Below are positions 1,698-44,472 of a DNA stretch of 52,535 nt, piece by piece. The stretch is from Patescibacteria group bacterium (lineage in GTDB: Bacteria; Patescibacteriota; Minisyncoccia; Minisyncoccales; JAHCRE01). The stretch is taken from the NCBI GenBank assembly GCA_020148145.1, contig JAHCRE010000019.1:1-52535 (forward strand), written 5' to 3'. A model generated the notes under the pieces. It searched no databases and was not told where the DNA came from. It was given only the letters and a program-made list of their open reading frames with translations. Position 1 is the first letter of the stretch; each line of letters opens with the position of its first letter. The position numbers were made by a program, and so were the translations under genes.

Positions 1698-1716
1698 TCT
1701 TTTAGGAGGTAACTAC

Positions 1717-2055: not shown

Positions 2056-2081
2056 TAGCTCTTTATCTCTCCATTTTTTAA

Positions 2082-2150: not shown

Positions 2151-2160
2151 TTTGTTTTTG

Positions 2161-2169
2161 TGGTATAAT
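2161..2169 (+). promoter_or_regulatory. Extended -10 promoter element (TGgTATAAT)
   Basis: TATAAT at 2164-2169 ends 9 nt before the ATG at 2179, which implies a leaderless or near-leaderless mRNA. Confidence 0.5.
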
Positions 2170-2178
2170 TTGATATAT

Positions 2179-2658
2179 ATGCTTAAGGAATCAGTTAAAA
2201 CGGGGCTAAGCTTTGGTCTAACTTCTGGAATTATAACAACGCTTGGGTTAATGGTAGGACTTCATTCTGGCACTCATTCAAAACTCGCAGTTATCGGCGG
2301 TATATTAACAATAGCAATAGCAGATGCATTCTCAGATGCGCTGGGTATTCATATTTCAGAAGAATCTGAGGCTAAACATACTGAAAAAGAAATATGGGAA
2401 TCAACAATTTCTACTTTTCTCTCTAAATTCTTGTTTGCTTTAGTATTTATTATCCCAGTTCTCCTTTTAAGGCTTTGGGTAGCAATTATGATAAGTATAA
2501 TCTTTGGGTTATTAATGATAGGTATTTTTAGCTTTAAACTTGCCAAAGAACAAAATATAAAGCCCTGGAAAGCGACTACAGAGCACCTAATTGTTGCTCT
2601 ATTAGTTATAGTTATAACTCATTATATTGGTGATTGGATATCATCAAAGTTTGGTTAA
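2179..2658 (+). CDS. VIT1/CCC1-like (DUF125-type) membrane protein (cassette 3)
   Basis: Multi-TM protein with GLSFGLTSGIITTLGLMVGL and AIADAFSDALGIHISEES motifs that resemble the VIT family. The start is moved to ATG 2179 because the upstream codons overlap the -10 box. Confidence 0.45.
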   Translation: MLKESVKTGLSFGLTSGIITTLGLMVGLHSGTHSKLAVIGGILTIAIADAFSDALGIHISEESEAKHTEKEIWESTISTFLSKFLFALVFIIPVLLLRLWVAIMISIIFGLLMIGIFSFKLAKEQNIKPWKATTEHLIVALLVIVITHYIGDWISSKFG

Positions 2659-2718
2659 ATAATTTGTAATAATTTCCTTACTTTTATTAAAGTAATTTCA
2701 GGCTGCTTGATTATATTT

Positions 2719-2816
2719 ACTCATTCAAAGGTTCTCCACCTTCGTTGAAACTTCGGCGGACAAGTAAAATCGTCCGCTAGACCGAGCTCGCTTGCCCGAG
2801 AGTTTTCCTCGGGGTT
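2719..2816 (+). repeat. Cassette-array boundary repeat, copy 4 (long form)
   Basis: Left arm ACTCATTCAAAGGTTCTCC, an inserted segment, ATCGTCCGCTAGACCGAGCTCGCTTG, then the core hairpin CCCGAG/CTCGGG at 2795-2813. Confidence 0.8.
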
Positions 2817-2817
2817 C

Positions 2818-2826
2818 TGTTATAAT
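2818..2826 (+). promoter_or_regulatory. Extended -10 promoter element (TGtTATAAT)
   Basis: TATAAT at 2821-2826, a few nt after the repeat hairpin. Confidence 0.45.
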
Positions 2827-2884
2827 AAAACAATAAAACAAAGGTCGACACTATCATCAATTAAATTTTACTAATTTTAAAAAT

Positions 2885-3514
2885 ATGAATAAAAGAAAGG
2901 TTTTAGCAATTTTATCCGTAATCGTAATTTTATTTTCGGTAGGATATGTCTTGGTAAATAATTGGGTTACAGCCCAAGAAAACGGAATAGTTATCGAAGA
3001 TAACGAAACTAACGAAAATGACGAAATTGTCATTGCCGGCGAAGATGACGAAACTGAAGACGAGGTTGGAAAGGCAGAAAAACAATTCGATAAACTTTTG
3101 AAACGATTAGAAAAAGCAGAATTTAAACTCTTTAAAGCACCAGCATCTCTCATTATCACCTCTAAAGGAAAAGCTACATTTGTTAATGCTGATTTAGCGG
3201 CAATAGAAACAGTAACTCCAGCAGAGAGCGGTATTTTGACAGTAAAGATTCATGGTTTAAATTTTGATGTAGATGCTTCAAAGGCAAAGATTTATGGTGG
3301 TGGAAAAAAGATTACAATTTCTGATCTTCAGATAGGAGATAAGTTATTAATTAAAGGTGTAGTGAATGAAGAAACAGGGATAATTGAAGCTACTCGAATT
3401 CACGATCGATCTATTCATAAAAAATCTATTGATAATCTTAGAGCAAGAATTCAAGAACTACTAAGAAAGATTGAAGAGCTTCGAGCAAGATTGGAGGCGA
3501 TGAGAGGTGATTAA
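2885..3514 (+). CDS. Secreted or membrane-anchored protein, acidic linker plus beta-rich domain (cassette 4)
   Basis: N-terminal hydrophobic anchor VLAILSVIVILFSVGYVLV, a D/E-rich stretch, and a C-terminal helix LRARIQELLRKIEELRARLE. No confident family call. Confidence 0.6.
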   Translation: MNKRKVLAILSVIVILFSVGYVLVNNWVTAQENGIVIEDNETNENDEIVIAGEDDETEDEVGKAEKQFDKLLKRLEKAEFKLFKAPASLIITSKGKATFVNADLAAIETVTPAESGILTVKIHGLNFDVDASKAKIYGGGKKITISDLQIGDKLLIKGVVNEETGIIEATRIHDRSIHKKSIDNLRARIQELLRKIEELRARLEAMRGD

Positions 3515-3646
3515 GAAATCCAGAACTCAACAATTATCTTAAGGTTGATTTTCAATCAAATTCTTTCTACTTTTAGATCTTTAGAGTAAGTTCTAATAAT
3601 TCTTTTGTTTGCCGCAAAACAACCCCAGGATTTTTAATCAAATCCA

Positions 3647-3718
3647 CCCACTCAAAGGTTTGAAAATCGTCCGTCCCGCGGAGCCGCCGCCCCGCCTTGG
3701 GAGGTTTTCTCTCGGGTT
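3647..3718 (+). repeat. Cassette-array boundary repeat, copy 5 (long form, degenerate hairpin)
   Basis: CCCACTCAAAGGTTTGAAAATCGTCCGTCCCGCGGAGCCGCCGCCCCGCCTTGGGAGGTTTTCTCTCGGGTT. It aligns closely with copy 1. Confidence 0.8.
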
Positions 3719-3722
3719 TTAT

Positions 3723-3750
3723 TTAACAAGAATCTAATATTGAATATAAT
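3723..3750 (+). promoter_or_regulatory. Candidate promoter of cassette 5
   Basis: TTAACA, 16-nt spacer, TATAAT (3745-3750). Confidence 0.4.
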
Positions 3751-3778
3751 AGAAACAGTACAAAAAGGAGGATTGAGA

Positions 3779-3973
3779 TTGGATAAACTATTTCAAGATC
3801 TAAAGGTTGGAACTTTCTTTCTGATGAATCTACCAAAAGAAAATCATCCAGATTGGGAGGTCGCGACATCCGCTCTTCATAAAAAAGTAAAGAACGACGC
3901 AGCAGTAAGGATAACAGACGGCAACTACCACGCAATAGCTCCTGGAAGATCTGTACGAGTAGTTCACATCTAA
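3779..3973 (+). CDS. Hypothetical small protein (cassette 5, 64 aa)
   Basis: In-frame TTG at 3779 lies 7 nt after GGAGG (3767-3771). The ORF-track start at 3740 overlaps the -10 box. The ORF looks GC-richer than the resident genes. Confidence 0.5.
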   Translation: MDKLFQDLKVGTFFLMNLPKENHPDWEVATSALHKKVKNDAAVRITDGNYHAIAPGRSVRVVHI

Positions 3974-3992
3974 AATTCGTTCTTTTACCTAT

Positions 3993-4024
3993 GCCCCGAG
4001 ACATGATAAAGCGGGGCTTTTTTA
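3993..4024 (+). terminator. Rho-independent terminator of cassette 5
   Basis: GCCCCG-N13-CGGGGC followed by a T run. Confidence 0.65.
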
Positions 4025-4074
4025 TTTCCGCCGCCCCCCCCCGAGAGCTTTTCTCGGGGGTTTTGTTCGCCGCC
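4018..4074 (+). repeat. Cassette-array boundary repeat, copy 6 (short form)
   Basis: TTTTTTATTTCCGCCGCCCCCCCCGAGAGCTTTTCTCGGGGGTTTTGTTCGCCGCC. The 9-bp core hairpin is at 4038-4060. Confidence 0.85.
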
Positions 4075-4076
4075 AT

Positions 4077-4105
4077 TTGACAAATTATTTATTTGGGTGT
4101 AAAAT
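4077..4105 (+). promoter_or_regulatory. Sigma70-type promoter of cassette 6
   Basis: TTGACA (4077-4082), 17-nt spacer, TAAAAT (4100-4105). Confidence 0.6.
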
Positions 4106-4131
4106 ATAATATAACCAAAGGAGGTGATTGC

Positions 4132-4362
4132 GTGGCTAATGTGCTTTGTGTAAGCGCAAATCTGAAGGAATTAAATGAAAAAGCAACAAGCAAGGTGTGG
4201 AGTCTCCAGAGCTTATTGTCCAAATGGACTACAGTCGTAGAAGAAACCGTTAGAAAGGATACTATGCAGAATATGCGACTCGTGAATGTTCTTCCCGTGA
4301 GATATGTTGCAGGAACATTGGAGGAAGCAATTCTCATTTTCGTTCCAAAGGAGGAGAGCTAA
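4132..4362 (+). CDS. Hypothetical small protein (cassette 6, 76 aa)
   Basis: In-frame GTG at 4132 lies 7 nt after AAGGAGGTGA (4118-4127). The ORF-track start at 4093 lies inside the promoter. Confidence 0.5.
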   Translation: MANVLCVSANLKELNEKATSKVWSLQSLLSKWTTVVEETVRKDTMQNMRLVNVLPVRYVAGTLEEAILIFVPKEES

Positions 4363-4377
4363 ACCAATAAAGTCCTA

Positions 4378-4405
4378 CGGGCAGACTCTTAATGCCCGTT
4401 TTTTT
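4378..4405 (+). terminator. Rho-independent terminator of cassette 6
   Basis: CGGGCA-N9-TGCCCG followed by TTTTTTT. Confidence 0.65.
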
Positions 4406-4472
4406 ATTTCCGCCGCCCCGAGAGCCTGCCGTGAACCGAGCTTCGCTCTGGTTCGTGGTTTCTCTTGGGGTT
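4399..4472 (+). repeat. Cassette-array boundary repeat, copy 7 (short form, loop interrupted by a second GC hairpin)
   Basis: TTTTTTTATTTCCGCCGCCCCGAGAG, then the insert CCTGCCGTGAACCGAGCTTCGCTCTGGTTCGTGG, then TTTCTCTTGGGGTT. Confidence 0.8.
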
Positions 4473-20893: not shown

Positions 20894-21064
20894 ATGGCCT
20901 TCGAAAAATTTGAGAAGAAGTTCGAGCGCAAAATGTTTAAAGGAGATTGGACTTGTGCTGATTGTGGAGCAAAGATAACTGAATTACCCTTTCAACCAGA
21001 TTCTGATAGACCAATCTATTGTCGAGAATGTCACCGAAAAAAAAGAGCTCGATTCCAACGCTAA
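20894..21064 (+). CDS. Small zinc-ribbon protein (CxxC-x18-CxxC, 56 aa), absent from the ORF track
   Basis: MAFEKFEKKFERKMFKGDWTCADCGAKITELPFQPDSDRPIYCRECHRKKRARFQR. A strong terminator at 21071-21095 follows directly. It resembles the CxxC-x17-CxxC small-protein family. Confidence 0.65.
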   Translation: MAFEKFEKKFERKMFKGDWTCADCGAKITELPFQPDSDRPIYCRECHRKKRARFQR

Positions 21065-21070
21065 ACAAAA

Positions 21071-21095
21071 AGCCCGCTCAAAAGCGGGCTTTTTG
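21071..21095 (+). terminator. Rho-independent terminator
   Basis: AGCCCGC-TCAAAA-GCGGGCT followed by TTTT. Confidence 0.75.
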
Positions 21096-21102
21096 TTATA
21101 AT
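21094..21102 (+). promoter_or_regulatory. Extended -10 promoter element (TGtTATAAT), leaderless layout
   Basis: TATAAT at 21097-21102 ends 6 nt before the ATG at 21109. Confidence 0.5.
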
Positions 21103-21108
21103 GAAACA

Positions 21109-22047
21109 ATGTATCCCAGCTATTTAAGCCTTTCGAGAAAAGAACTTAATAAAAGAATCGAAAAGCTTTTTAAGATTTTAGAAAGATGCGAAATTTGTCC
21201 CAGAAAATGCCGAATTAATAGATTAAAAGAAAAAAAAGGTTTTTGCCAATTGGGACGCGAACCTGTGGTTTCAGCTCACCATCCCCATTTTGGTGAAGAA
21301 AGTCCCTTAGTTGGTCGCTTTGGTCCAGCCTCGCCCGACTCGCTGGCGAGGCGAGGCGGGTCAGGAACAATATTTTTTACTTCTTGTAATTTGGCTTGCG
21401 TTTATTGTCAAAATTATGGAATATCTCAATTAAGGATCGGGGATGAAACCTCTTTTGAAAAACTGTCTCAGATGATGATTGATCTCCAAAAATTAGGTTG
21501 TCATAATATTAATTTGGTTACCCCCACCCCTCAGGTTCCCCAGATTATAAAATCACTTTCTATTGCCATTGAGAAGGGATTAAAATTGCCCTTAGTTTAT
21601 AACACCAGTTCTTATGACTCAATCGAGGTTTTAAAATTATTAGATAAAATTGTTGATATTTACATGCCGGATGCCAGATATTCTGATAATGAAATTGCTT
21701 TGAAATATTCCAATGCAAAAAATTATTTTGAAATAATGAAAGGGGCAATTAAGGAAATGCATCGCCAGGTTGGTGATTTAGTTTTGGATAAAAATGGAAT
21801 CGCTGTTCGCGGTCTTTTAGTTAGGCATTTAGTCTTGCCTAATGATTTGGCCGGTTCTGAAAAAATTTTTAAATTTTTAGCCAAAGAAATTTCCCCTAAT
21901 ACTTTTTTAAATATTATGGGCCAATATTATCCTTGCTATAGGGCTTTTGAATTTCCTGAACTTTCCCGGAGAATTACATATGAAGAGTATCAGGAAGCAA
22001 TTAAATTAGCTAAAAAAGCCAATTTAAAACGGCTTTACCGTGAATAA
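21109..22047 (+). CDS. Radical SAM protein, PflX-like (pyruvate formate-lyase activase homologue, COG1313-type)
   Basis: CEICPRKCRINRLKEKKGFCQLG N-terminal Cys motif and the CNLACVYCQN cluster. The start is moved to ATG 21109 because the upstream part of the ORF-track ORF overlaps the zinc-ribbon gene and its terminator. Confidence 0.7.
   Translation: MYPSYLSLSRKELNKRIEKLFKILERCEICPRKCRINRLKEKKGFCQLGREPVVSAHHPHFGEESPLVGRFGPASPDSLARRGGSGTIFFTSCNLACVYCQNYGISQLRIGDETSFEKLSQMMIDLQKLGCHNINLVTPTPQVPQIIKSLSIAIEKGLKLPLVYNTSSYDSIEVLKLLDKIVDIYMPDARYSDNEIALKYSNAKNYFEIMKGAIKEMHRQVGDLVLDKNGIAVRGLLVRHLVLPNDLAGSEKIFKFLAKEISPNTFLNIMGQYYPCYRAFEFPELSRRITYEEYQEAIKLAKKANLKRLYRE
21324..21364. repeat. GC-rich hairpin element in frame inside the radical SAM gene
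   Basis: CCAGCCTCGCCCGACTCGCTGGCGAGGCGAGGCGGGTCAGG. Stem GCCTCGCC/GGCGAGGC (21328-21335 with 21345-21352). It encodes GPASPDSLARRGG between the conserved HFGEESPL and GSGTIFF. Confidence 0.6.
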
Positions 22048-22053
22048 TTTAAA

Positions 22054-23094
22054 ATGAAAAATCCAAGAATTAAAAACCTGTTTTCTCTTTTTTTACTGCT
22101 TGGATTATCATTTTTAGTTCTTTTATTTTCTATTTATATTTCCAAAATTAATGCCGAGATTAGCTCTCTTTATCTCGGGGCAATCGTTAGTCAGTCGTTA
22201 ATTCAAAAAAGGCAACCCTCATCAGGGGCAATAACTCTAATTTTTGTTGGCGATATTATGTTAGACCGGGGAATAGAGTATATGGTTAAAAATCATGGTG
22301 ATGGTAATTACGAATTTCCATTTTTAAAAATCGCTGATTTTTTAAAAAAAGCTGATATTTTATTTGGTAATTTAGAGGGGCCAATTTCCAATAAAGGGAA
22401 AAAAGTTGGAAGTATTTATTCGTTTCGAGCTGATCCTAAGGCGGTTGAGGGTTTAACCTATGCTGGTTTCGATATTTTATCAGTGGCCAATAATCATATT
22501 TTCGATTATGGAAAAGTGGCAATGGAGGATACTTTTTTAAATTTGAAAAAGGCCGGGATTGAATATGTAGGAGGGGGATTTACTGAAACTGAAGCTCATT
22601 CTCCAATAATTAAGGAGGTAGATAAAACAAAAATTGCCTTTTTAGCCTACACTAATTTGGGTTCGAAATATTGGGAGGCAAAAGGAAACAATTCGGGTAT
22701 TGCCTGGTTAAATAAAGAAAAGATGGAAAAAGATATTAAAATAGCGAAAAATCAGGCAGACATAGTAGTAGTTTCAATACATACAGGTAGAGAATACCAA
22801 GCTAAACCCAATCTTATTCAGAAATATTCCTCTCACCTATTTATTGATGCCGGAGCAGATTTAGTAATAGGCCATCACCCCCATGTTATTCAGGAAATTG
22901 AAAAATATAAAAACAACTATATTGCCTATTCTCTGGGCAACTTTGTTTTTGACCAAGGATTTTCTAAAGAAACTATGAAAGGACTTTTATTAAGAGTTAT
23001 TATCAAAGATAATAAAATAAAAACAGTTGACCCAATTGAAATTAAAATTAACAAATTCTTCCAGCCAGAGATTATAGAAGAACTGGAGGAATAA
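22054..23094 (+). CDS. CapA/PGA_cap family metallophosphatase-like protein
   Basis: N-terminal TM anchor. LIFVGDIMLDRG, GNLEGPIS, SVANNHIFDYG, IGHHPHVIQ. Confidence 0.75.
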   Translation: MKNPRIKNLFSLFLLLGLSFLVLLFSIYISKINAEISSLYLGAIVSQSLIQKRQPSSGAITLIFVGDIMLDRGIEYMVKNHGDGNYEFPFLKIADFLKKADILFGNLEGPISNKGKKVGSIYSFRADPKAVEGLTYAGFDILSVANNHIFDYGKVAMEDTFLNLKKAGIEYVGGGFTETEAHSPIIKEVDKTKIAFLAYTNLGSKYWEAKGNNSGIAWLNKEKMEKDIKIAKNQADIVVVSIHTGREYQAKPNLIQKYSSHLFIDAGADLVIGHHPHVIQEIEKYKNNYIAYSLGNFVFDQGFSKETMKGLLLRVIIKDNKIKTVDPIEIKINKFFQPEIIEELEE

Positions 23095-23172
23095 AAAACT
23101 TTGCCAAGAGGCAAGGTTAAAAATCGAGAAGCTAATTGGGGGGAAATTTATGTGGGTGGTGATGTTAAAAAT

Positions 23173-24222
23173 TTAAACTTCTGGACTCCAACTAATTAAA
23201 TTTCCTTTTATCTCAAACTTTCCATCTATAAATTTTTCGATTGCCCAGATGTTAGTTTTGCAGTGATTAGTAACTTCTGAAACTGTAAATTTACTCTCTT
23301 TGGGAACCAGGGCCACATAAGGTAAAATTTGGTCAGCCAAATGTTTATCTAAGCAGGCCTGGGTTTTTTGTTCTCTTAATAATTCTAGGGCTGCTTCTTT
23401 TCCGACATTTTCAGCTCTCTTTCCTAATTTTCCTAAATTATCTACTCCAATCACTGTATTCTCAAATTGACAAATTAGACAAATTTGGCTTCCCGGGCAT
23501 TGAGTTTCATGATATTTAACTTTTTCTTCAATTGGTAATTTTAATTTTCCTAAGATTTCTCTAACTCCAAAAATTTGCCTTTCAGCAACTTTTTTATTTT
23601 TCAAAAATTCTGAGGCTCCAGAAATAACTAAAATTTTTTGAAGTTCTCCTCTTTCTAAAAGATTGAGGTTTTTTATTTTTGAGGGAAAAATTTTTACTTC
23701 AACTTTTGCCCCTCCTTCTGGATAATAACCTCTTTTCAAAACATTTATTTCAGTTTTAACCCCGATTTTTTCTAAAATTTTTAAAAAACAATATCTGAAA
23801 TGGTCAATAGTTGGAGAAAAGAAAGTATCAGTAGCGCCTCCATTAAAAACAATCTTCACTGGCCCTGGAGCAAAGAGGCTGGGTAAAATTAGAGTCTGTA
23901 AAACTAAAGTAATACTTCCGGCAGTTTTAATTCTAACATTGACTGAAATTTGTTTTTGGCTAATTTCGCCAGGATAAAATTTTATATCCTCACTTTCTAG
24001 TTTATCACCCTCTAATCTTCCATTACAAAGTTGAGCTAAGGCCTGAATTCCTAAAAGATGCTGGGGTCTTAAACCGGGCTTTGGTCTACTTTTACGAATA
24101 TTAAAAACATGACAGGATTTTTTAGTCACTACTGAAAGAGCAGTTGCTACTCTTAATATAGCCCCACCCCCTTCATATTTTGAACCATCTATCTCAATTA
24201 GATTTTGATTAAATTGAATCAT
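23173..24222 (-). CDS. rtcA: RNA 3'-terminal phosphate cyclase
   Basis: IEIDGSKYEGGGAILRVATALSVVT, RPKPGLRPQHL, DKHLADQILPY. Confidence 0.85.
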   Translation of the reverse strand: MIQFNQNLIEIDGSKYEGGGAILRVATALSVVTKKSCHVFNIRKSRPKPGLRPQHLLGIQALAQLCNGRLEGDKLESEDIKFYPGEISQKQISVNVRIKTAGSITLVLQTLILPSLFAPGPVKIVFNGGATDTFFSPTIDHFRYCFLKILEKIGVKTEINVLKRGYYPEGGAKVEVKIFPSKIKNLNLLERGELQKILVISGASEFLKNKKVAERQIFGVREILGKLKLPIEEKVKYHETQCPGSQICLICQFENTVIGVDNLGKLGKRAENVGKEAALELLREQKTQACLDKHLADQILPYVALVPKESKFTVSEVTNHCKTNIWAIEKFIDGKFEIKGNLISWSPEV

Positions 24223-24276
24223 TTTAATTCAAAAACTTGACAGCGTTTTTTTGAAAGACTAAGATAGGTTGTTAAC

Positions 24277-24744
24277 ATGACTAAAGAAAAAAAATTTTAT
24301 TTAACTAAAGAAGGTTTAGAAAAGATTAAAAAAGAACACAAAGAACTTAAAAGTCTTAGGTCTCTGAAAGTTAAAGGTGAATTTCCAAAAATTTTACATT
24401 CAGAAAATGTAAGCCCAGAATATCTTTCTTTACAGGAAGATTTAAGTTTTATAGAGAGGAGAATAGCTGAGCTGGAAAGTGTTCTCAAAAATAGTGAATT
24501 AATTAAATCACCTCCTAAAGAAAGGCAAGATGTTGTTAATTTAGGAGCAATGGTTTTGGTGCAAATTGATGACCAAATTGACGAATTCACAATTGTTGGG
24601 TCACTAGAAGCGAACCCCTCTTTGGGAAAAATCTCAAATGAATCACCGGTTGGAAAAGCACTTCTGGGGCATCGAGTTAGAGATGAAGTTATTATCCCCT
24701 CTCCAATAAAAATAACTTATAAAATTTTGAAGATAAAGTACTAG
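24277..24744 (+). CDS. greA: Transcription elongation factor GreA
   Basis: N-terminal coiled coil LTKEGLEKIKKEHKELKS and a C-terminal domain with ISNESPVGKALLGHRVRDEV. Confidence 0.8.
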   Translation: MTKEKKFYLTKEGLEKIKKEHKELKSLRSLKVKGEFPKILHSENVSPEYLSLQEDLSFIERRIAELESVLKNSELIKSPPKERQDVVNLGAMVLVQIDDQIDEFTIVGSLEANPSLGKISNESPVGKALLGHRVRDEVIIPSPIKITYKILKIKY

Positions 24745-26532: not shown

Positions 26533-26838
26533 TTAGAGCTTATAAACTTTGTAGCCTTCTCGGACTTTTTGATCGACCTTGAGGCCAATAGAGTCGCCGG
26601 CCTTAGCCTCCTCTACTTTCTCGTGTTCAATCTCCATTGACCCTACTGCCTGAGTGAAATCGGTTACCCCCCCAACAATTCTAATAGATTCTCCTGCTCT
26701 TAAGGGGTCAGTGAGCTCAATCACTGCCACTCCTATTTTCGAAAAATAGTGAGTAACTTTCCCCACTAATTTCCCTTCTTCTGGCCGCCCTTGGCGAGCC
26801 TCGCCTTCGGCGGGAACTTGGGGTTTTTCATTTGGCAT
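26533..26838 (-). CDS. Translation elongation factor-like beta-barrel protein (EF-Tu domain 2-like)
   Basis: GKVTHYFSKIGVAVIELTDPLRAGESIRI..GDSIGLKV..REGYKVY. The N-terminal 24 codons are encoded by a GC-rich element. An alternative GTG start at 26766 follows GAAGGG. Confidence 0.6.
   Translation of the reverse strand: MPNEKPQVPAEGEARQGRPEEGKLVGKVTHYFSKIGVAVIELTDPLRAGESIRIVGGVTDFTQAVGSMEIEHEKVEEAKAGDSIGLKVDQKVREGYKVYKL
26783..26814. repeat. GC-rich hairpin element at the 5' end of the EF-like gene
   Basis: GGCCGCCCTTGGCGAGCCTCGCCTTCGGCGGG. Outer stem CCGCC/GGCGG, inner stem GGCG/CGCC. Homologous to the copy at 41667-41705. Confidence 0.6.
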
Positions 26839-26860
26839 AACTTTTCTTTTTAAAATAATT

Positions 26861-27460
26861 TTATTTTTCCGACCTTTTTAAATGAGTTTTTTCTTTTTTT
26901 ATTAAATTAATTAATTTTTTTACTAATTTTTTGGGGTTTTCATCATAAATAATTTTTTTTACTCCTCGATAGGGACCTGTAGCAATAATTCTTATTTTAT
27001 CAGCGGTTCCAGCTGAACCTTCTAATACTCCGATTGGTTTTTGGATTTCAAAAGCAGTGGCAAATTCATGCAAGGTTCCCATCCGACCACAGATAATAAT
27101 TACTCCGTCTACTGACTTTGTCATGATTACGTTTCTGCCCACATAATCAGCCCCGGTATAAATCACGACATTAAATGGATCTAGGGGTAGTTTATATTTT
27201 TTTAAATGGGCAGCTTCAGAGGTTGCTGGAGAAAAACCAACACTAAATCCACCGGTTTCTTTACAGCCCAGGGCGGCAAAATAAGGAACTCCGGTTGTGG
27301 CTCCAGTGACCAAAACACATTTTCGGCGAGCGATCTCTCGACCAATCTCTTTAGATAATCCTTCAACCCCTTTTGCGCAGTGACCAATCTGGGCTGCACC
27401 TGAAACTGCAATTTTATATTTTGAGCGATAGCGAGAAATATCCCTAGAGGTATATCTCAT
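26861..27460 (-). CDS. TIGR00725/LOG-like (SLOG) Rossmann-fold protein
   Basis: IAVSGAA..LVTGATTGVPYFAALG..GGFSVGFSP..GRMGTLHEF. The minus-strand TGTTATAAT ends 8 nt before the ATG, a leaderless layout. Confidence 0.6.
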   Translation of the reverse strand: MRYTSRDISRYRSKYKIAVSGAAQIGHCAKGVEGLSKEIGREIARRKCVLVTGATTGVPYFAALGCKETGGFSVGFSPATSEAAHLKKYKLPLDPFNVVIYTGADYVGRNVIMTKSVDGVIIICGRMGTLHEFATAFEIQKPIGVLEGSAGTADKIRIIATGPYRGVKKIIYDENPKKLVKKLINLIKKEKTHLKRSEK

Positions 27461-29387: not shown

Positions 29388-30089
29388 TTATTTCTCAGCT
29401 ATGATATAAAAATTAGAGTTTTTTCTTTTTTTTAGGGGAACCGTTATAATTCCACTTTCTTTTATCTTAAACTTTCCCTTTTTTACTAAATCTTCTAACC
29501 CTCTCTTTCTGAAACAATGGAAATAAAAATCTCTCATTCCCATCCCGGAAATTAAGATATCATAAAAATCTAGTTTTGATCTTCCAATAATTTTTAATAA
29601 AATCGATTTGTAAATTTTTTTTCTAAAAGATGGTTTTCGCCACAAATCCCAAACTGTTAGAATCAAAAGACCCCCTGGCTTTAAAACTCTTCTTGCTTCT
29701 TTTAAAAATTGAAGTCGAAATTCTTCTGAAGGAATATGATGTAAAACAGCAATACTGTAAATTTTATCAAAAAAATTATCAGGGAAAGGTAAATTTAAGA
29801 CATCGGCTACTTGAAATCTGGCTTTGGGGTATCTCTTTTTAGCTATCTCGATTAGTTTTTCAGAATTATCAATACCAATATAATCTATTTTCTTATCTCT
29901 TAGAAATTCAAATAATCTGCCATTTCCACATCCTAAATCTAAAATTTTCTCCCCTGCTATTACATAATCATCCACTAAAAACCTTACTTCTTCCCACATT
30001 TTAAATCTAACTCTTGAAAAGTCCTCGGCAATTAGGTTATAATCTTCTTTAGTCTTCTCTAATATATATTCGGCGTAACTCCTTTCCAT
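29388..30089 (-). CDS. Trm9-like class I SAM methyltransferase (candidate tRNA wobble-uridine carboxymethyl ester methyltransferase)
   Basis: IAEDFSRVRFKMWEEVRFL..ILDLGCGNGR..AVLHHIP..LKPGGLLILTVW. The pattern matches what I remember of Trm9/ALKBH8 methyltransferase domains. Divergent neighbour of Elp3. Confidence 0.55.
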   Translation of the reverse strand: MERSYAEYILEKTKEDYNLIAEDFSRVRFKMWEEVRFLVDDYVIAGEKILDLGCGNGRLFEFLRDKKIDYIGIDNSEKLIEIAKKRYPKARFQVADVLNLPFPDNFFDKIYSIAVLHHIPSEEFRLQFLKEARRVLKPGGLLILTVWDLWRKPSFRKKIYKSILLKIIGRSKLDFYDILISGMGMRDFYFHCFRKRGLEDLVKKGKFKIKESGIITVPLKKRKNSNFYIIAEK

Positions 30090-31743
30090 GGTAAAAATTT
30101 GGGAATCTACCCCGAAGGAATCTCTTCGAGATCCTACGGGGCAGGCAATTAAAGAACTAATTAAAAACCGGGTAAAAACTCAGGTTGGTTTAGCTAAGAT
30201 TAAAAGGAAAATAGCAAAAAAATACAAAATCCCTTTGCCTTCAAATATTGAACTCTTAAAAGCATATCATAATCTAATTAAAAAGAAAAGTATAAAAAAA
30301 TCTGAAAATTTAGAAAATCTTTTAAAAAAAAGAAAAATTAGAAGTCTATCTGGGGTAGTTGTGGTTTCGGTTTTAACAAAACCTTATCCCTGTCCCGGAA
30401 AATGTATCTATTGCCCTTCAGAGAAAGGTCTTCCAAAAAGCTATTTATCAGGGGAGCCGGCAGTGGAAAGGGCAAAAAAGCTAAAATTTGATCCCTATTT
30501 ACAATCTCAAAAGAGAATTGAAAGTTTAAAAAGACAAGGCCATCCTACTGACAAAATCGAACTAAGAATAATCGGAGCAACTTTTTCTGTTTATCCAAAA
30601 AAATATAAAATCTGGTTCATATCTAATTGTTTTGCAGCAGCAAATAAAAGAAAAGGAGTTTCCAAAAAAGAGGTTAGCTGGAAAATACTGGAAAAACAAC
30701 AAAAAATAAATGAAAAAGCAAAACAAAGGATTATTGGAATAAGTATTGAGACCAGGCCGGATTTAATTAACAAAAATGAGATTTTAAATTTAAGAAAACT
30801 AGGAGTAACAATGGTCGAAATCGGAGTTCAGACAATTTTTGATGATATTTTAGAAAAATGTAAAAGAGGCCACGGAGTCAAAGAAACAGTTTTAACTACA
30901 AAAATTTTAAAAGATGCTGGCTTCAAAGTAATGTATCAAATGATGCCGAATTTGCCTGGCTCTGATTTAAAAAGGGATTTGAAATGTTTTGAAGAAATCT
31001 TTAAAAACAAAAGTTTTAAACCAGATTGGTTAAAAATTTATCCTTGTGTAGTCTGTAAAGAATCTAAACTCTATCAAATCTGGAAAAAAAGAAAATACAA
31101 GACCTATTCTGATGAGAAATTAATTGAACTTTTAATTAAAATAAAAAAAACCTTACCTTATTGGGTAAGAGTAGCGAGGCTTTTTAGAGATATTCCAATT
31201 CCAAAAATTAAAGGGGGTTGTAAAATTTCTAATTTGAGAGAAGTTGTTCAGCAAAAAATGAAAGAAAAAGGAGAAAGCTGTTGTTGTATTAGATGCAGGG
31301 AGGTCAGAGGAGATTATAATCCAAAAGAAAAATTTTATTTATTTAGAGAAAATTATGAAGCGTCTGAAGGAAAAGAAATATTTCTGAGTTATGAAAACAA
31401 AAATAGAGAGAAACTCTTGAGTTTCCTAAGATTAAGAGTTCCCTCCTGCACCCTTCGGGCTTCAGGGGGCAAGCCCTTTCAAAAATATTTCTTACCAGTT
31501 TTAGAAAATTCGGCAATAATTAGAGAGGTTCACACTTATGGCAGGTTAGTTCCAATATCAAAAAGAAAAATAGCTCCTCAACATCGAGGCCTTGGGAAAA
31601 AATTAATCAAAATGGCAGAAAAAATCACCAAAAAAGAGTTTGGATTGAATAAAATTACTGTAATTTCTGGTGTAGGAGTAAGGAATTATTGGCGGAGACT
31701 AGGATATAAATTAAAAAATAACTATATGATAAAAGAGATCTAG
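30088..31743 (+). CDS. Elp3-type tRNA uridine(34) acetyltransferase (radical SAM plus GNAT)
   Basis: PYPCPGKCIYCPSE radical SAM motif, ETRPD, VEIGVQT, C-terminal GNAT HRGLGKKLIKMAEKI. Confidence 0.8.
   Translation: MVKIWESTPKESLRDPTGQAIKELIKNRVKTQVGLAKIKRKIAKKYKIPLPSNIELLKAYHNLIKKKSIKKSENLENLLKKRKIRSLSGVVVVSVLTKPYPCPGKCIYCPSEKGLPKSYLSGEPAVERAKKLKFDPYLQSQKRIESLKRQGHPTDKIELRIIGATFSVYPKKYKIWFISNCFAAANKRKGVSKKEVSWKILEKQQKINEKAKQRIIGISIETRPDLINKNEILNLRKLGVTMVEIGVQTIFDDILEKCKRGHGVKETVLTTKILKDAGFKVMYQMMPNLPGSDLKRDLKCFEEIFKNKSFKPDWLKIYPCVVCKESKLYQIWKKRKYKTYSDEKLIELLIKIKKTLPYWVRVARLFRDIPIPKIKGGCKISNLREVVQQKMKEKGESCCCIRCREVRGDYNPKEKFYLFRENYEASEGKEIFLSYENKNREKLLSFLRLRVPSCTLRASGGKPFQKYFLPVLENSAIIREVHTYGRLVPISKRKIAPQHRGLGKKLIKMAEKITKKEFGLNKITVISGVGVRNYWRRLGYKLKNNYMIKEI
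31441..31477. repeat. GC-rich hairpin patch in frame inside Elp3
   Basis: CCCTCCTGCACCCTTCGGGCTTCAGGGGGCAAGCCCT. Stem GGGCTT/AAGCCC (31457-31462 with 31471-31476). It encodes PSCTLRASGGKP. Confidence 0.5.
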
Positions 31744-33456: not shown

Positions 33457-33480
33457 AAAACCTTAGTAATCAAAAAGCTT

Positions 33481-33540
33481 CCACAGCCCCGCCCGCCAAG
33501 GAGGCAGCCTCGTCTTCGGCGAGTGCTGAACTCCCGACCC
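33481..33540. repeat. Intergenic GC-rich hairpin element
   Basis: CCACAGCCCCGCCCGCCAAGGAGGCAGCCTCGTCTTCGGCGAGTGCTGAACTCCCGACCC. Its reverse complement shares CGCCGAAG-CGAGGCT-GCC with the copy at 26783-26814. Confidence 0.6.
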
Positions 33541-37921: not shown

Positions 37922-39364
37922 TTATTCGCCCTTAATTACTGCCAAGGGCACAAGCCTTGCCACTTTTTTTGATAAACCAGCCCGATGGACGACATCAACT
38001 ACTTGTTCCACATCTTTATAAGCCATTGGCGCTTCTTCAGCAATTCCTCTCATTGACCAGCATTTCACAATGATTCCTTTTGATTCTAACTCTCTCACTA
38101 CTTCTTGTCCAGAAATTCTTCTGACCGCTGCGTGCCGTGACATTGTTCTACCGGCACCGTGGCAAGTACTAAAGAAAGCATTTTCTCCTTCCTTTTGACC
38201 AACTAAAATATAAGAAGCAGTTCCCATTGAGCCTGGGATCAAAACTGGCTGACCAACTTCTCGATATTTTTCTGGGATTTCAGGATGCCCCGGTGGAAAG
38301 GCCCGAGTGGCTCCTTTTCGATGAATAACTAACTTCATTTTTTTTCCATTAACCTCATGCTCTTCGATTTTAGCAATATTATGAGCAACATCATAAAGTA
38401 ATTGAAGCTCTTCTTTTTCTCCTAATATCTTTTTCCAAGCTTTTCTTACATAGTGAGCAATCATATGGCGGTTTGACCAGGCATAATTACAAACGGCAGA
38501 CATTGCTTTAAAGAATCTTTGCCCTTCTGGAGAATTAAATGGAACGCAAGCTAATTCTCTATCTGGAAGTTTGATGCCATATTTTGGCATAGCCTGCATC
38601 ACTACTCTTAAATAATCAGTACAATTTTGATGCCCAAGCCCCCTAGAACCGGTATGTATCATCACTACTACCTGGTTCTTGAATAATCCGAAAGCTTCTG
38701 CTACCTCTGCGTCAAAAATTTCCTCAACCCTATCAAGTTGGCAAAAATGATTGCCACTTCCGAGAGTGCCAACTTGATTCCTTCCTCTGTTTTTAGCTTT
38801 TTCAGAAACGCAAAAGGCATCAGCTAATTCCATTTTTCCTGTGTGTTCACAATTTTCAATATCCTCTTTTTCTCCATATCCCTGTTTTACAAGATAGGGA
38901 ACCCCTCCCTCTAAAATTTTGTTAATTTGCTCAATGCTTAACTTTATTTTTCTCCCCCTTCCCAAACCAGAGGGAACTTCTTTTTGAATTTCAGTAGCTA
39001 ATTTATCCAAGTGAGGCTTGACCTCTTTTTCAGAATGTTCAGACTTCAGCAATCTAACCCCACAATTTTCGTCATAACCGACAAAGCCAGGAGAAATAAC
39101 TCCACCTGGTAATTTCATTGCCCCTACTCCGCCAATGGGGGCACCGTAGCCCTCATGCATATCTGGCATACCCAAAACATACTTTACAACCCCAAGAAGC
39201 GTTGAGGTGTTTATTACTTGAGGAATTGACCTATCTCGGAAAATATCTTTCAACATCTTTTCTGAAACATAAATTCTGGCAGGAACTCGCATATCCGGCC
39301 GGAAATTTTTTGGAATTTCCCATAAATAATCTGTAATCTTTTTGAAATTTTGTTTTGTAATCAT
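37922..39364 (-). CDS. rtcB: RNA-splicing ligase RtcB (3'-phosphate/5'-hydroxyl RNA ligase)
   Basis: MPDMHEGYG, GYDENCGVR, GSGNHF, HTGSRGLGHQ, STCHGAGR. Confidence 0.95.
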   Translation of the reverse strand: MITKQNFKKITDYLWEIPKNFRPDMRVPARIYVSEKMLKDIFRDRSIPQVINTSTLLGVVKYVLGMPDMHEGYGAPIGGVGAMKLPGGVISPGFVGYDENCGVRLLKSEHSEKEVKPHLDKLATEIQKEVPSGLGRGRKIKLSIEQINKILEGGVPYLVKQGYGEKEDIENCEHTGKMELADAFCVSEKAKNRGRNQVGTLGSGNHFCQLDRVEEIFDAEVAEAFGLFKNQVVVMIHTGSRGLGHQNCTDYLRVVMQAMPKYGIKLPDRELACVPFNSPEGQRFFKAMSAVCNYAWSNRHMIAHYVRKAWKKILGEKEELQLLYDVAHNIAKIEEHEVNGKKMKLVIHRKGATRAFPPGHPEIPEKYREVGQPVLIPGSMGTASYILVGQKEGENAFFSTCHGAGRTMSRHAAVRRISGQEVVRELESKGIIVKCWSMRGIAEEAPMAYKDVEQVVDVVHRAGLSKKVARLVPLAVIKGE

Positions 39365-40085: not shown

Positions 40086-40490
40086 TTAGATGTCAAATAA
40101 CACCGTTGCTTCCCAAGTCCCGTCTTTTTTTTGAAGAACGTCTAATTCATGATAAGTCACTGCCTTAATATCTTCACCAAATCTTTTTACTTTTTGACCG
40201 ATTAATTCTCCTTTAATTTCTCTATCGGTGAATTTAATAAATTTGGCATTAAAATAGATTTCTTTATTCACCTGACTTAAATAAAGGGCCTCGCTCAAAA
40301 AATCAACTAAAAGAGCAGCTAAATCAAGGGATTTTATTTTAATTTCTCTCTTTGTTTTTTTTGCTAATTTTTCAGCCTTTTGAGAATCTGCCATCCCAAA
40401 AAGCATATTCAAAAAAAGCTCCGGCTTTTCTTTACCGAAAGCCCTGATTTTTAAATCAGCCTTATGCTCTAAAATCTCATATTTTTTCAT
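40086..40490 (-). CDS. Archease (RtcB activator/chaperone)
   Basis: YEILEHKADLKIRAFG and a C-terminal IKAVTYHELDV. TAATG overlap with the upstream gene. Confidence 0.85.
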   Translation of the reverse strand: MKKYEILEHKADLKIRAFGKEKPELFLNMLFGMADSQKAEKLAKKTKREIKIKSLDLAALLVDFLSEALYLSQVNKEIYFNAKFIKFTDREIKGELIGQKVKRFGEDIKAVTYHELDVLQKKDGTWEATVLFDI

Positions 40491-41797
40491 TAAAAATCTA
40501 TTATTTTAAGATTTTTAAATTCTTCCCTGACTATCCGTCTATCATCCCAGGGAATCTTCCTGCCGCCGGCTACGCATATCCAGGGTTCACATCCTTTGCC
40601 AGTAATAATAACAGCATCTCCTGATTTAGCAATTTTTAAGGCTTCTCTAATTGCTTTTTTTCTGTCTAAAATTTTTTTTGCCTTACCTTTTGTTCCATGA
40701 TCTATCTGCTCAATTATTTCTATCGGATCTTCATCATAGGGATCTTCATTGGTCACAATAACTTGATTGCAATATTTGGAAGCTAATTTTCCAAGGATAG
40801 GCCTTTTCCACTTATCTCTTCCTCCACCACAAGACCCTAAAACACAGATTAAATTTTTTGGCCTAAATTCTTGAGAAATTATTCGATAGACTTTTTCTAA
40901 AGCATTTGGGGTGAAAGCATAATCAACAAAAACTTTAAAGGGATTTTTAATTACTATTTCCATCCTGCCCGGGATTTTTTTAACTTTTTCTAAAGCCAAT
41001 TTACAGGTTTCAAAATCAACCCCCTGTGATAACCCAATACAAATTGCTGCCAGAGCATTATAAATATTGAATTTAGCAAGTAAATTTAATTCAAATTCAA
41101 TGTTGTCAAGAGAGAATTTTAACCCATCTGAAGAGATTTTATAATTTTTGACATTTAAAATGTTTATTCTTTTATTCGCCTGAGATTTAGACCCAATCGA
41201 ATAGCCATATTTTTTGTTAGCTAAAAATCGCAAAAAATATTGAGCATTTTCATCATCTAAATTGACAATATGAATTTTTTTGGCTGCCTGAAACAGCTTC
41301 CCTTTTGCCTCTCTATATTTTTCAAATGAACCGTGAGCTTCAATATGTTCAGGGGTTAAATTAGTAAACACGGCTACATCAAAATCAATAAATCTATGAC
41401 GGTGTTGCAAAATTCCCTCAGATGTTACCTCCAAAACACAAAATTGGCAGCCCGAATCTAAGGCCTGTCTTAAAAACTTTTGTAATTTAAAACGACCAGG
41501 CATAGTCATTTTTAAAGTATTTAGCCACTCTTTTCCCCAAATTTTGAAAGAAATTGAAGACAGAGAGGCAACCTTGAAACCTTCCTCTTCTAGGATTTTG
41601 GTTGTTAAATTAACTACCGTAGATTTTCCATTAGTTCCGGTTACTCCAATTACAACCATTTTTTTTGCCGTCCCGTTGGGCGAGGTTCGCTTTTGGCGGG
41701 AAGGGAAACCATAAAAAAAAGCGCCTAGCATCGCTAACAAAAAATGGTAATAATTAATCAAAAATTCAGGAATGATTTTTTTGATTAAATCTTTCAT
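40490..41797 (-). CDS. Mur ligase family protein (MurE-like) with N-terminal membrane anchor
   Basis: VIGVTGTNGKST P-loop, FTNLTPEHIEAHGS, DYAFTPNALE, C-terminal domain ITGKG. Confidence 0.7.
   Translation of the reverse strand: MKDLIKKIIPEFLINYYHFLLAMLGAFFYGFPSRQKRTSPNGTAKKMVVIGVTGTNGKSTVVNLTTKILEEEGFKVASLSSISFKIWGKEWLNTLKMTMPGRFKLQKFLRQALDSGCQFCVLEVTSEGILQHRHRFIDFDVAVFTNLTPEHIEAHGSFEKYREAKGKLFQAAKKIHIVNLDDENAQYFLRFLANKKYGYSIGSKSQANKRINILNVKNYKISSDGLKFSLDNIEFELNLLAKFNIYNALAAICIGLSQGVDFETCKLALEKVKKIPGRMEIVIKNPFKVFVDYAFTPNALEKVYRIISQEFRPKNLICVLGSCGGGRDKWKRPILGKLASKYCNQVIVTNEDPYDEDPIEIIEQIDHGTKGKAKKILDRKKAIREALKIAKSGDAVIITGKGCEPWICVAGGRKIPWDDRRIVREEFKNLKIIDF
41667..41705. repeat. GC-rich hairpin element in frame inside the Mur ligase gene
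   Basis: GCCGTCCCGTTGGGCGAGGTTCGCTTTTGGCGGGAAGGG. It aligns with 26783-26814 (C-TTGG-CGAG..TCGC-TT-GGCGGGAA). It encodes SRQKRTSPNGTA just before the P-loop. Confidence 0.6.
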
Positions 41798-42435: not shown

Positions 42436-44472
42436 ATGAAGTTTAAACTCTACTCAAAATTTAAACCAACTGGTGATCAACCTCAGGCAATTGAGGGGTT
42501 AGTTAAGAATTTAAAAGTTGGAATTAAAAATCAAGTTTTATTAGGGGTAACGGGGTCGGGAAAAACATTTACTTTAGCTAATGTAATTGAAAGTGTCCAG
42601 AAACCAACCCTGGTGATATCCCATAATAAGGTTTTGGCTGCCCAACTTTATCAAGAATTTAAAGAATTTTTTCCAAAAAATGCTGTTCATTACTTTGTCT
42701 CTTATTATGACTACTATCAACCAGAGGCTTACCTTCCTCAAACCGACACCTATATTGAAAAGGATGCCAAAATTAATAAAGAGATTGATAGATTAAGGCA
42801 TGCCGCCACTCAAGATCTCCTGACAAGGCCTGATATTGTTATTATTGCCTCGGTTTCTTGCATTTACAACATTGGTTCGCCAGAAACCTATCAGAAAGTT
42901 TCTCTTGAAATTAAACCAGGAAAAAAAATTAGAAGAAAAGTTTTTCTTTCTTATTTAACTGATTTACAATATCAAAGAAATGATATCGATTTTCGGCCAG
43001 GGACTTTTCGAGTTAGAGGAGAGATTATTGAAATTTATTTAGTTACTGGAAAAGAAATTTTGAGAGTTGAATTTTTTGGCGATGGGATTGAAAAAGTTTC
43101 AATCTCTCCAGCTTCATTAACTCCAAACTATAAACTTCTAACCACTAGTTATCGTTTATATCCAGCCCATTTCTGGGTGACTCCTCAAGAGAAATTAAAT
43201 ATTGCTATTGAGAATATAAAATTGGAACTACAAGAAAGATTAAAGGAATTAAAAAAAGAAAAAAAACTAATAGAAGCTCAAAGATTAGAACAGAGAACAA
43301 ATTATGACTTGGAAATGCTAAGAGAAGCGGGCTTCTGTCATGGAATTGAAAATTATTCAAGACATTTAGAATTTAGAAAACCAGGCCAAGCCCCTTATAC
43401 TTTAATTGATTATTTTTCCGCCGAGGGGCCCGCGGTAAGCGGGAGGGTGGAGGGGGGGTTGGAGTCCGCCAAGGCTACAACGAACAAATCAAGAAATTTC
43501 TTAATTTTTGTTGACGAATCTCATATGACCTTACCTCAACTCCATGCCATGGCTAATCAAGATCGAGTTAGAAAAGAAACTTTGATTGAATATGGATTTA
43601 GGCTTCCTTCAGCAATAGATAATAGGCCCCTAACCTTCAAAGAATTTGAAGAAAAAACCGGTCAGATAATCTATATTTCAGCCACTCCAGCCAAAGAGGA
43701 AAGGAAGAAGGCTAGTAAAAAATATGTTGTTGAACAATTAATTCGGCCTACTGGCCTTTTGGAACCTTCAGTTGAACTTCGATCGGCAAAAAATCAGGTT
43801 GAGGATTTAGTCAAGGAAATTAAGGCAAGGGTAAAGAAAAAACAAAGAGTCCTTGCTCTAACTCTAACCAAGAGGTTGGCTGAAGCCTTGTCTGATTATT
43901 TGGCCGAAGAAGGAATTTCCACTCAGTGGTTACATGCTGAAGTTAAAACCTTGGAGAGACCGCAAATCCTCAAAGACTTAAGAAAAGGAAAATATGATGT
44001 CTTAGTTGGAATTAATCTCTTAAGGGAAGGGTTGGACTTACCAGAAGTTGCACTGGTCGCAATTTTAGATGCTGATAAAGAAGGATTTTTAAGGTCAGAA
44101 ACCACTTTGATTCAAACCATGGGAAGGGCAGCTAGGCATATTGAAGGCCATGTTATTTTATACGCAGATAAAATTACAAAATCAATGGCGGCTGCCATAA
44201 AAGAGGTAGAGAGAAGAAGAAAAATTCAAAGGAAATATAATAAAAAGCAGGGAATAATCCCCAGGTCAATTATAAAAGAAATTAGGGGTTGGCCGTTTGT
44301 TTCAAAAGAAAAAGAAATATCCTCTGAATTTTGGGCAATCAAAGACGTTAAACTCCTTGAAAAAGAGATGAAGGAAGCGGCCAAGAATTTGGATTTTGAA
44401 AGAGCGGCTGAAATTAGAGACTTGATTAAAAAATTAAAAAGTAATAAAAATAAATTGTATGCCAATTACTAA
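42436..44472 (+). CDS. uvrB: Excinuclease ABC subunit B
   Basis: [22 protein letters not shown], beta-hairpin region [25 protein letters not shown]-terminal UVR domain FERAAEIRD. Confidence 0.95.
43416..43476. repeat. GC-rich hairpin element in frame inside uvrB
   Basis: TTCCGCCGAGGGGCCCGCGGTAAGCGGGAGGGTGGAGGGGGGGTTGGAGTCCGCCAAGGCT. Hairpin CCCGC-GGTAA-GCGGG (43429-43443). Direct TCCGCC repeats at both ends. It adds about 23 aa between the conserved LIDYF and FLIFVDESH. Confidence 0.7.

Follow-up and report, generated by a model that had tools for sequence, protein, structure and literature searches.

Probable copies of one very small GC-rich hairpin element in two unrelated genes of a patescibacterial contig

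Introduction

We report here on two GC-rich patches in a 52,535-nucleotide (nt) stretch of DNA, contig JAHCRE010000019.1 of the Patescibacteria group bacterium assembly GCA_020148145.1 (the window). One patch lies in the gene of a MurE-like Mur ligase and the other in that of a small protein resembling domain 2 of elongation factor EF-Tu, here called EF-like. Both quite probably belong to a single family of DNA insertion elements that are very small, rich in GC and able to form hairpins, with the EF-like copy intact and the MurE copy decayed. The unit of the family is a two-tier hairpin of 29 nt plus one base, that is, 30 nt, and variants of 33, 36 nt or more have longer spacers. The element lies inside unrelated protein-coding genes of many lineages and is absent from most orthologues. 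Its length is a multiple of three (3n) and it is free of stop codons, and it is thus, as judged from the reading frames, read through, adding a mostly hydrophilic loop or linker of 10–12 residues to the predicted protein.

The window has a GC content of 33.7 %, and the named relatives of its proteins are Candidatus Nealsonbacteria and other Patescibacteria. The host genes, the patches and the copies within them are as follows.

26533..26838, minus strand: small EF-Tu domain 2-like protein, 101 amino acids (aa), Pfam GTP_EFTU_D2
40490..41797, minus strand: MurE-subfamily Mur ligase, 435 aa, Pfam Mur_ligase_M and Mur_ligase_C
26783-26817, minus strand: patch B, in the EF-like open reading frame (ORF)
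41667-41705, minus strand: patch A, in the MurE-like ORF
26784..26814, minus strand: EF-like copy, canonical 31 nt, sense C-CCGCC-GAA-GGCGAG-G-CTCGCC-AAG-GGCGG-C
41667..41700, minus strand: MurE copy, decayed, sense C-CCGCC-AAA-AGCGAA-C-CTCGCC-CAAC-GGGACGG-C
Peptides to be expected on read-through: PAEGEARQGR (EF-like) and SRQKRTSPNGTA

The original prediction, which had been made from the sequence alone, placed both host genes on the minus strand, and the ORFs at 26533-26838 and 40490-41797 bear this out. Its position for patch A is exact, while patch B turned out to be one base longer than given there.

The ligase scores 346 bits against the TIGR01085 murE model (cutoff 257). In place of the canonical N-terminal domain it has a hydrophobic helix at the N-terminus (residues 11–29 in the AF2 model), an architecture that is common to all of its 120 closest relatives. 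For the EF-like gene, the pipeline product is a protein of only 77 aa (P0124), with the start placed 3' of the GC insert. However, since the N-terminus is conserved in the EF-like orthologues, the ATG at 26838 is the true start, and patch B is coding. Start-codon prediction can thus be led astray by GC inserts.

Results and Discussion

Similarity of the two patches

The two patches align along their length, as had been noticed before, with 29 matches, 4 mismatches and 3 one-base gaps, which corresponds to a local score of 31. Only 1 of 5000 dinucleotide shuffles of the pair reaches this score. If an unrelated repeat family at 860-4460 is set aside, no two other GC-rich patches of the window form a better pair. 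When the 37 remaining patches were shuffled jointly in 150 window-wide sets, the mean best score was 24.4 and the maximum 30, and none of the 150 sets reached 31. The similarity is thus beyond chance both pairwise and window-wide.

It is important to point out that the two elements are not read in the same frame, contrary to the original prediction. The element begins on the first position of a codon in the EF-like gene and on the second position in MurE, and the reading phases of the copies agree only in the last 2–3 codons, past two of the three alignment gaps. Of the two similar peptides, RQKR (41698..41687) is encoded by the 5' arm and RQGR (26796..26785) by the 3' arm. Their likeness arises because the DNA of the element is nearly dyad-symmetric, and not from homologous codons.

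Insertions at the two sites and in other genes of relatives

The EF-like orthologues are typically 88–91 aa long, compared to 101 aa in the window, and their usual N-terminus is MPNEKPLPEEGKL. The corresponding residues in the window are MPNEKPQV-PAEGEARQGR-PEEGKL, that is, a net insert of 30 nt is translated as PAEGEARQGR in the N-terminal tail of the protein. The empty site can be seen in locus L205 as AAACCTCTTC/CTGAAGAA, where the slash marks the point of insertion (loci from other genomes are given L numbers here). An eroded copy is present at the same place in P0123 / L204; it reads IPAEGEAPQEQ, is encoded by CCCGCCGAAGGCGAAGCTCCCCAGGAGCAGCC, and has lost the pairing while keeping the frame.

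At the MurE site, most of the 120 closest MurE-like proteins read FPS-(R/K)K-xKVIGVTGTNGKST without any insert (consensus FPS-RK-MKVIGVTGTNGKST). A long insert at exactly the site of the window is carried by 11 of the 120 aligned proteins, and a 2-residue one by another. Compared to most orthologues, the MurE of the window has 11 extra residues, RQKRTSPNGTA (a net insert of 33 nt), which follow the N-terminal hydrophobic helix and precede the first strand / P-loop, and the alignment to a solved MurE-like chain in the PDB shows an 11-residue gap at SRQKRTSPNGT. The earlier estimate of about 11 residues between the membrane anchor and the P-loop was therefore correct. In the AF2 model (pLDDT 90.8), the insert is located in the linker between helix 11–29 and strand 48–53, with a confidence below that of its neighbours. 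The empty site is found in L003 as TTTCCTTC/CCGAAAAATG, also written TTTCCTTCCCG/AAAAATG. The 33 extra bases are present in the window, L001 and L206, and the copies in the latter two have the same length and the same 3+6 spacer layout as in the window, with less decayed cores, GGCGAG-A-CTCGTC and GGCGGG-G-CTCACC. For the MurE-like and the EF-like proteins alike, orthologues without the GC patch are also without the extra residues.

A different hairpin occurs at the same MurE codon in L052 (10095-10120), L207, L208 and L060. It is either CCGCC-TTCGCCAAGGCTWC-GGCGG-GCAAG, in which the CCGCC-TTCGCCAAGGCTWC-GGCGG hairpin is translated as RLRQG(F/Y)GGQ, or of further types, and all of these alternatives lie 3' of CYTC. 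The insert-bearing MurE orthologues are scattered in a neighbour-joining tree. The different hairpins and the scattered carriers indicate a hot spot, or precise loss of inserts, or both, and the MurE site looks like an insertion hot spot that is common to several hairpin families.

Two more family copies were found in L001, which thus carries them in addition to the MurE one. In archease the insert amounts to 54 nt, and the protein is 18 residues longer than in the window, where the archease site is empty. In DUF498 it amounts to 45 nt, and the L001 protein is 15 residues longer than its L208 orthologue, which has the length of the window protein (120 aa), the window being empty here as well. 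In a census of GC patches over ca 1 Mb of related loci, the EF-like copy clusters with the L001 archease copy, the L001 DUF498 copy and one L078 patch. This census with clustering replaced a search with the exact outer-stem patterns CCCGCC..GGCGGG and CCGCC..GGCGG, which, over the window and the first 83 loci, gave so few copies that no family could be defined from them.

A sequencing or assembly artefact was rejected as the source of the inserts, given that independent assemblies contain orthologous copies whose divergence keeps pace with that of their genes.

The hairpin family

The family pattern CCGCC-N(2-7)-GGCGAG-N-CTCGCC-N(1-8)-GGCGG was scanned over species-representative genomes. All family counts below are among the matches listed, on contigs of 56 % GC or less, and amount to at least about 95 copies. 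The metagenome-assembled genomes (MAGs) carrying them are labelled as many classes of Patescibacteria, Planctomycetota, Omnitrophota, Ignavibacteria, Elusimicrobia, Chlamydiales and others. The family consensus is the 31-mer C-CCGCC-nnn-GGCGAG-G-CTCGCC-nnn-GGCGG-C, of which the EF-like copy is a perfect member. Its exact 29-mer is present in several other copies, one of them within a UvrD-like helicase. The EF-like copy is thus identical to copies in unrelated genes of distant lineages, which upholds the proposal of a dispersed insert at the nucleotide level, as opposed to protein-level evolution. A covariance model was built from 85 copies from other genomes and without MurE sequences. The EF-like copy scores 46.8 bits against this model (E=9e-7), and the next best site of the model in the window is the MurE copy.

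In 89 of the 95 copies, the flank, centre and flank positions are linked as C..G..C or its reverse complement, and the unit is therefore one asymmetric 31-mer. The 5' flank has the consensus C-Y-T-C and the 3' flank is C. Long unambiguous ORFs contain 59 of the 95 copies, and 15 are in stop-free stretches shorter than 100 aa. All three core frames are used in the long ORFs (28, 15 and 17 copies for frames 0, 1 and 2), and the three peptides that result are PAEGEARQGR, SRQRRGSPKAA and PPKARLAKGG. Among the carriers, 55 ORFs have matches to 138 Pfam families, none of which is matched by more than 3 ORFs; they include aminoacyl-tRNA synthetases, UvrD, kinases, PolX and ribonucleotide reductase.

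The lengths of the two spacers add up to 3n in 93 of the 95 copies, and in 14 of the 15 copies in short ORFs or intergenic DNA, while in the chance control, that is, contigs above 56 % GC, this is the case for 9 of 26 matches. The spacers are purine-rich on the sense strand of the host gene in 47 copies versus 11 (p=2e-6), regardless of the direction of the 31-mer. For the 31-mer itself, the difference in orientation relative to the host gene (36 versus 22) is not significant.

About a fifth of the copies (ca 17 of 93) have tandem direct heptamers on either side, an example being AATTTCC twice, then the hairpin, then C and AATTTCC twice. Such copies are found in L113 (2435, 3156 and 7202), L140 (1178), L104 (5299), L116 (4907), L125, L179, L153 and L154. 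The heptamer varies among genomes and is identical at all three L113 copies, where a 60-nt composite results. This identity makes the heptamers look like a part of the element and not like a duplication. The copies of the window have no heptamer flanks.

Structure, codon usage and fate of the inserts

The EF-like copy is predicted to fold into a hairpin of 29 nt, in which an outer and an inner stem of 5 bp each are separated by a 3x3 internal loop and the inner stem is capped by a 3-nt loop, with calculated fold energies of −17.7 kcal mol−1 as RNA and −10.7 kcal mol−1 as DNA. The z-scores relative to GC-matched shuffles are modest (−1.4 to −2.6). A two-tier hairpin is thus predicted for the EF-like copy, and a weaker one for the MurE copy.

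The codons of the insert are foreign to the host. The GC content at third codon positions is about 0.7, compared to 0.26 for the host, and CGC accounts for 3 % of the arginine codons of the host. Neither patch has an Rfam match at the gathering score; the only such match in the window is one tRNA, and the region around 26700-26900 gives at most 13 bits. An intrinsic terminator was also considered and rejected, as there is no terminator-like site at either patch and both are in ORFs; a run of A follows 3' of the MurE hairpin on the sense strand. On sequence grounds, these features fit a translated and tolerated passenger, and not a functional RNA or peptide, and the element is probably without function for the host.

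Once inserted, the element evolves like the surrounding gene and decays. While the EF-like copy of the window is intact, the MurE copy and the EF-like copy of L204 are eroded.

Possible mechanism

On the best reading of the data, this is a DNA hairpin element that is non-autonomous and becomes translated on landing in a gene. At the EF-like, MurE and DUF498 sites the net insert has the length of the hairpin plus 1 nt and no bases are duplicated, and both empty sites read CTTC/C, as seen in two empty/filled pairs with boundaries ambiguous by 1–3 nt. Insertion may thus take place at the DNA level directly 3' of (C)TTC and without target-site duplication. By analogy, this pattern could be that of single-strand hairpin transposition, carried out in trans by Y1 transposases of the IS200/IS605 type or of the kind associated with repetitive extragenic palindromic (REP) elements.

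Following insertion, copies would persist only at places that tolerate the extra peptide, for example termini, linkers or loops, and only if their orientation or variant gives purine-rich spacers on the sense strand. A filter of this kind would explain both the purine bias and the positions in tails and linkers. The 3n length, on the other hand, appears to be a property of the family itself.

Some other origins were examined and rejected. A phage vector gave 1 viral-contig match, and phage and plasmid collections returned only chance-level matches in high-GC records. The search for a longer parent element with the same ends covered 1.6 Mb of retrieved low- and mid-GC DNA and turned up no separated half-sites. 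The footprint of an excised transposon does not agree with the two spacers being non-complementary and the sequence being constant across genomes.

Alternative explanations

It can be argued that only the EF-like patch belongs to the GGCGAG-N-CTCGCC family, and that the MurE patch is a GC hairpin that is unrelated to it or of different derivation and sits at an insertion-prone site, in which case the likeness of the two would stem from general features of GC hairpins, such as the CCGCC/GGCGG ends. The family model indeed gives the MurE patch only 16.1 bits (E=0.76), which means that membership in one and the same element, as claimed originally for both patches, is firm for the EF-like copy and weak for the MurE copy taken alone. 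The clearly different interiors at the same codon (CCGCC-TTCGCCAAGGCTWC-GGCGG or other hairpins in L052, L207, L208 and L060) and the scattered positions of the insert-bearing orthologues in the tree point in the same direction. However, the pairwise score is above those of all 150 window-wide shuffle sets, and the MurE patch is the best non-self match of the family model in the window. Furthermore, the same-site copies of L001 and L206 with the same 33-nt, 3+6 layout keep recognisable cores, and the L001 MurE copy scores 20.8 bits, which is in the range of the L001 archease and DUF498 copies (19–21 bits for the three). We therefore regard a separate origin of the MurE patch as unlikely, although it is the most serious of the alternatives. 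The pairwise test, together with the orthologous copies that are less decayed in two related genomes, makes an old and eroded family copy the best reading of the MurE patch.

The other alternatives assign a role to the insert or remove it from the message. If the hairpins were selected as mRNA or DNA structures, for example to pause translation after the membrane helix, to stabilise the mRNA or to bind a protein, this would account for the striking conservation of the hairpin sequence across phyla, for the conserved non-pairing 3x3 internal loop and asymmetric C..G..C positions, and for the purine bias on the sense strand. Nevertheless, the hairpin is missing from most orthologues, orthologous copies lose the pairing and keep the frame (L204 and the MurE of the window), and the carrier genes are unrelated. 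With modest fold z-scores and neither an Rfam match nor a terminator-like site in addition, this scenario is very improbable. Even less probable is a selected peptide module rich in arginine, glycine and proline with a function of its own. The sense-strand spacers are biased to codons for hydrophilic residues, and peptides of the RQ.R type would fit. However, the same DNA is read in three frames to give three unrelated peptides, the two copies of the window are in different phases, the codon usage is foreign to the host, and there are copies outside long ORFs too.

An equally slight chance is given to removal or skipping of the hairpin at the RNA level, as in an intron-like or bypass element. 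What speaks for it is that three proteins are encoded nearby in the window, as listed here.

37922-39364: RtcB
40086-40490: archease
23173-24222: RTC (RNA 3'-phosphate cyclase)

Excision would need no 3n length, and yet this length is kept in 93 of the 95 copies; the sense-strand spacers also have a bias of the coding type. Splicing endonucleases recognise an offset bulge-helix-bulge motif, whereas the internal loop here is a symmetric 3x3 one. An archaeal-type bulge-helix-bulge intron spliced by the neighbouring RtcB and archease was accordingly rejected, considering the symmetric loop, the 3n length and the read-through.

There are several points that weigh against the interpretation as one family of mobile hairpin elements. 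In addition to the MurE score in the covariance search (cmsearch), the MurE copy alone reaches E=0.45 over 2 Mb with nhmmer, a search with five seeds that was underpowered. The different hairpin type at the same MurE site in other lineages could mean a site-specific process, and not ordinary transposition, and the target site is deduced from the two empty/filled pairs and the flank consensus. In the 52-kb window, no transposase or other mobilising gene was seen, and the element is nearly absent from viral contigs (1 match in 2.9 million). The copy number in the clade is low, as roughly 1 Mb contains 3 canonical copies and about 4 that are decayed. As to the family itself, both stems are fixed by the search pattern, which makes their conservation partly a matter of construction and puts covariation outside its reach. 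The assignment to ORFs is by stop-free length and not by gene calls, and the taxonomic labels of the MAGs may include mis-binned contigs. Finally, a hairpin that is nearly identical from one phylum to another is not what is usually seen with selfish repeats.

Other GC-rich inserts and repeats in the window

A number of further GC-rich segments were observed. UvrB (42436-44472, plus strand) has a 24-residue in-frame GC-rich insert at 43412-43482 that is absent from the UvrB of L001. It belongs to a distinct family (GGACTCCAACCC..CCACCCTCCC-hairpin-GGGCCCC), members of which are also present in L016 (inside MurE), L018, L020, L034, L041 and L059, and which is probably also behind the DYNPPT... 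peptides of P0025, P0068 and P0087. In the ELP3-like radical SAM gene (30088-31743, plus strand), a GC-rich hairpin patch at 31438-31480 (CCCTTCGGGCTTCAGGGGGCAAGCCC) adds 7 residues in frame relative to the L205 orthologue. Another radical SAM gene (21019-22047, plus strand) has a palindrome, GCCTCGCC-9 nt-GGCGAGGC, at 21310-21371, which encodes GPASPDSLARRGGSG just upstream of CxxxCxxC. This segment shares core-like words with the element; the similarity is not significant (nhmmer E=9.2, no cmsearch match), and it was not counted as a copy.

Between the signal-peptide-peptidase and uracil-DNA glycosylase genes there is a 67-nt patch with 67 % GC (33474-33540), while in L205 the two genes abut. 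This patch has core-like words in common with the element as well, and its local score against it is 28, with nhmmer E=6.7 and no cmsearch match, and it was not counted as a copy either, but it may be a decayed intergenic one. The repeats at 860-4460 consist of an intergenic unit that is present six or seven times, CCGCCGCCCC-GAGAG-TTTTT-CTCTCGGGG-TTTT, in some cases with ATCGTCCGTCCC ahead. They are mostly located shortly upstream of small plus-strand ORFs, which are mostly without Pfam matches (one is VIT1-like). No Rfam match was obtained for these units, and related patches occur in L001 and L018. The unit may be a shared leader or regulatory hairpin. The cumulative GC skew of the window peaks at ca 22000–24500, where the gene strand turns from plus to minus, which is the pattern of a replication terminus.

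Comparison with known systems

The closest known kind is that of the Rickettsia-specific palindromic elements (RPEs; Ogata et al. 2000, as reviewed in PMC2229807), which are 105–146 bp long and restricted to Rickettsia, and the present element is a miniature counterpart of these. Both are palindromic, stem-loop-forming repeats in an AT-rich reduced genome and lie in frame in conserved, unrelated genes. Both are also absent from orthologues, translated as an extra surface segment and apparently neutral or slightly harmful, and a transposase is known for neither. The present element differs in being mostly 30–36 nt long, with an intrinsic 3n length, and in being nearly identical in MAGs of many phyla, and there is no sequence similarity between the two.

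REP elements, which are associated with RAYT (Y1) transposases, are 20–40 nt long and form GC-rich imperfect hairpins; they are extragenic, present in hundreds per genome, often clustered, marked by GTAG or CGTC tags, and species-specific (PMC3733652, PMC3184786). The element described here resembles them in its size, its GC-rich imperfect hairpin, the short conserved motif at the 5' foot of the stem and the absence of target-site duplication. It is, however, mostly intragenic, with both copies of the window coding, and low in copy number. Its flank is C-Y-T-C instead of GTAG or CGTC, and its sequence is common to several phyla. No RAYT (Y1 transposase) gene was found in the 52-kb window.

The GC clusters of yeast mitochondria and the hairpin repeats of sponge and fungal mitochondria are likewise short GC-rich palindromes in very AT-rich genomes (PMC4478555, PMC2800124). 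They are hairpin-forming, have no known enzyme and are occasionally found inside coding sequence, as here, but these families are organellar and specific to their lineages, they lie mostly between genes, and 3n phasing has not been described as one of their properties. Bacterial MITEs (miniature inverted-repeat transposable elements) can also be fused in frame to ORFs, examples being Correia/NEMIS (107 bp), ERIC and YPAL (PMC2229807, PMC10969869). They share with the present element that they are small and non-autonomous, with open frames fused into host genes. However, MITEs measure ca 100–200 bp or more, carry terminal inverted repeats together with target-site duplications (often TA) and are derived from identifiable insertion sequences, and no such feature was observed here. 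In the literature on palindromes, hairpins and in-frame insertion in Patescibacteria / Candidate Phyla Radiation, and on the motif, no description of the element was found.

Conclusions

The two patches of the window are thus probably one intact and one decayed copy of a family of hairpin elements that insert into genes. A more far-reaching proposal, which we put forward tentatively, is that they represent a previously undescribed, pan-phylum class of "codon-phased" mini-elements. This would be a fixed, asymmetric 30-nt hairpin that colonises coding sequence in Patescibacteria, Planctomycetota, Omnitrophota and other uncultivated lineages, is spread or regenerated by widely shared machinery and has its 3n length as an adaptation to genes. 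Loop insertions in the proteins of these small AT-rich genomes would then have a general source in this class, together with at least two other GC-hairpin families in the window.

The length of 30 nt is far shorter than that of the in-frame elements reviewed in PMC2229807 (about 100–200 bp). If the proposal is true, the built-in 3n length would be a clear example of selection acting on the element itself, and the near-identity across phyla would point to a shared mobilising activity or vector. It would also mean that GC patches mislead gene callers, as for the EF-like start (77 aa instead of 101), and that copies are useful as presence/absence markers for strain and lineage tracing in metagenomes. 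For the proteins of Patescibacteria and other uncultivated bacteria, a part of the length variation and of the "low-complexity" loops would then be selfish DNA and not adaptation.

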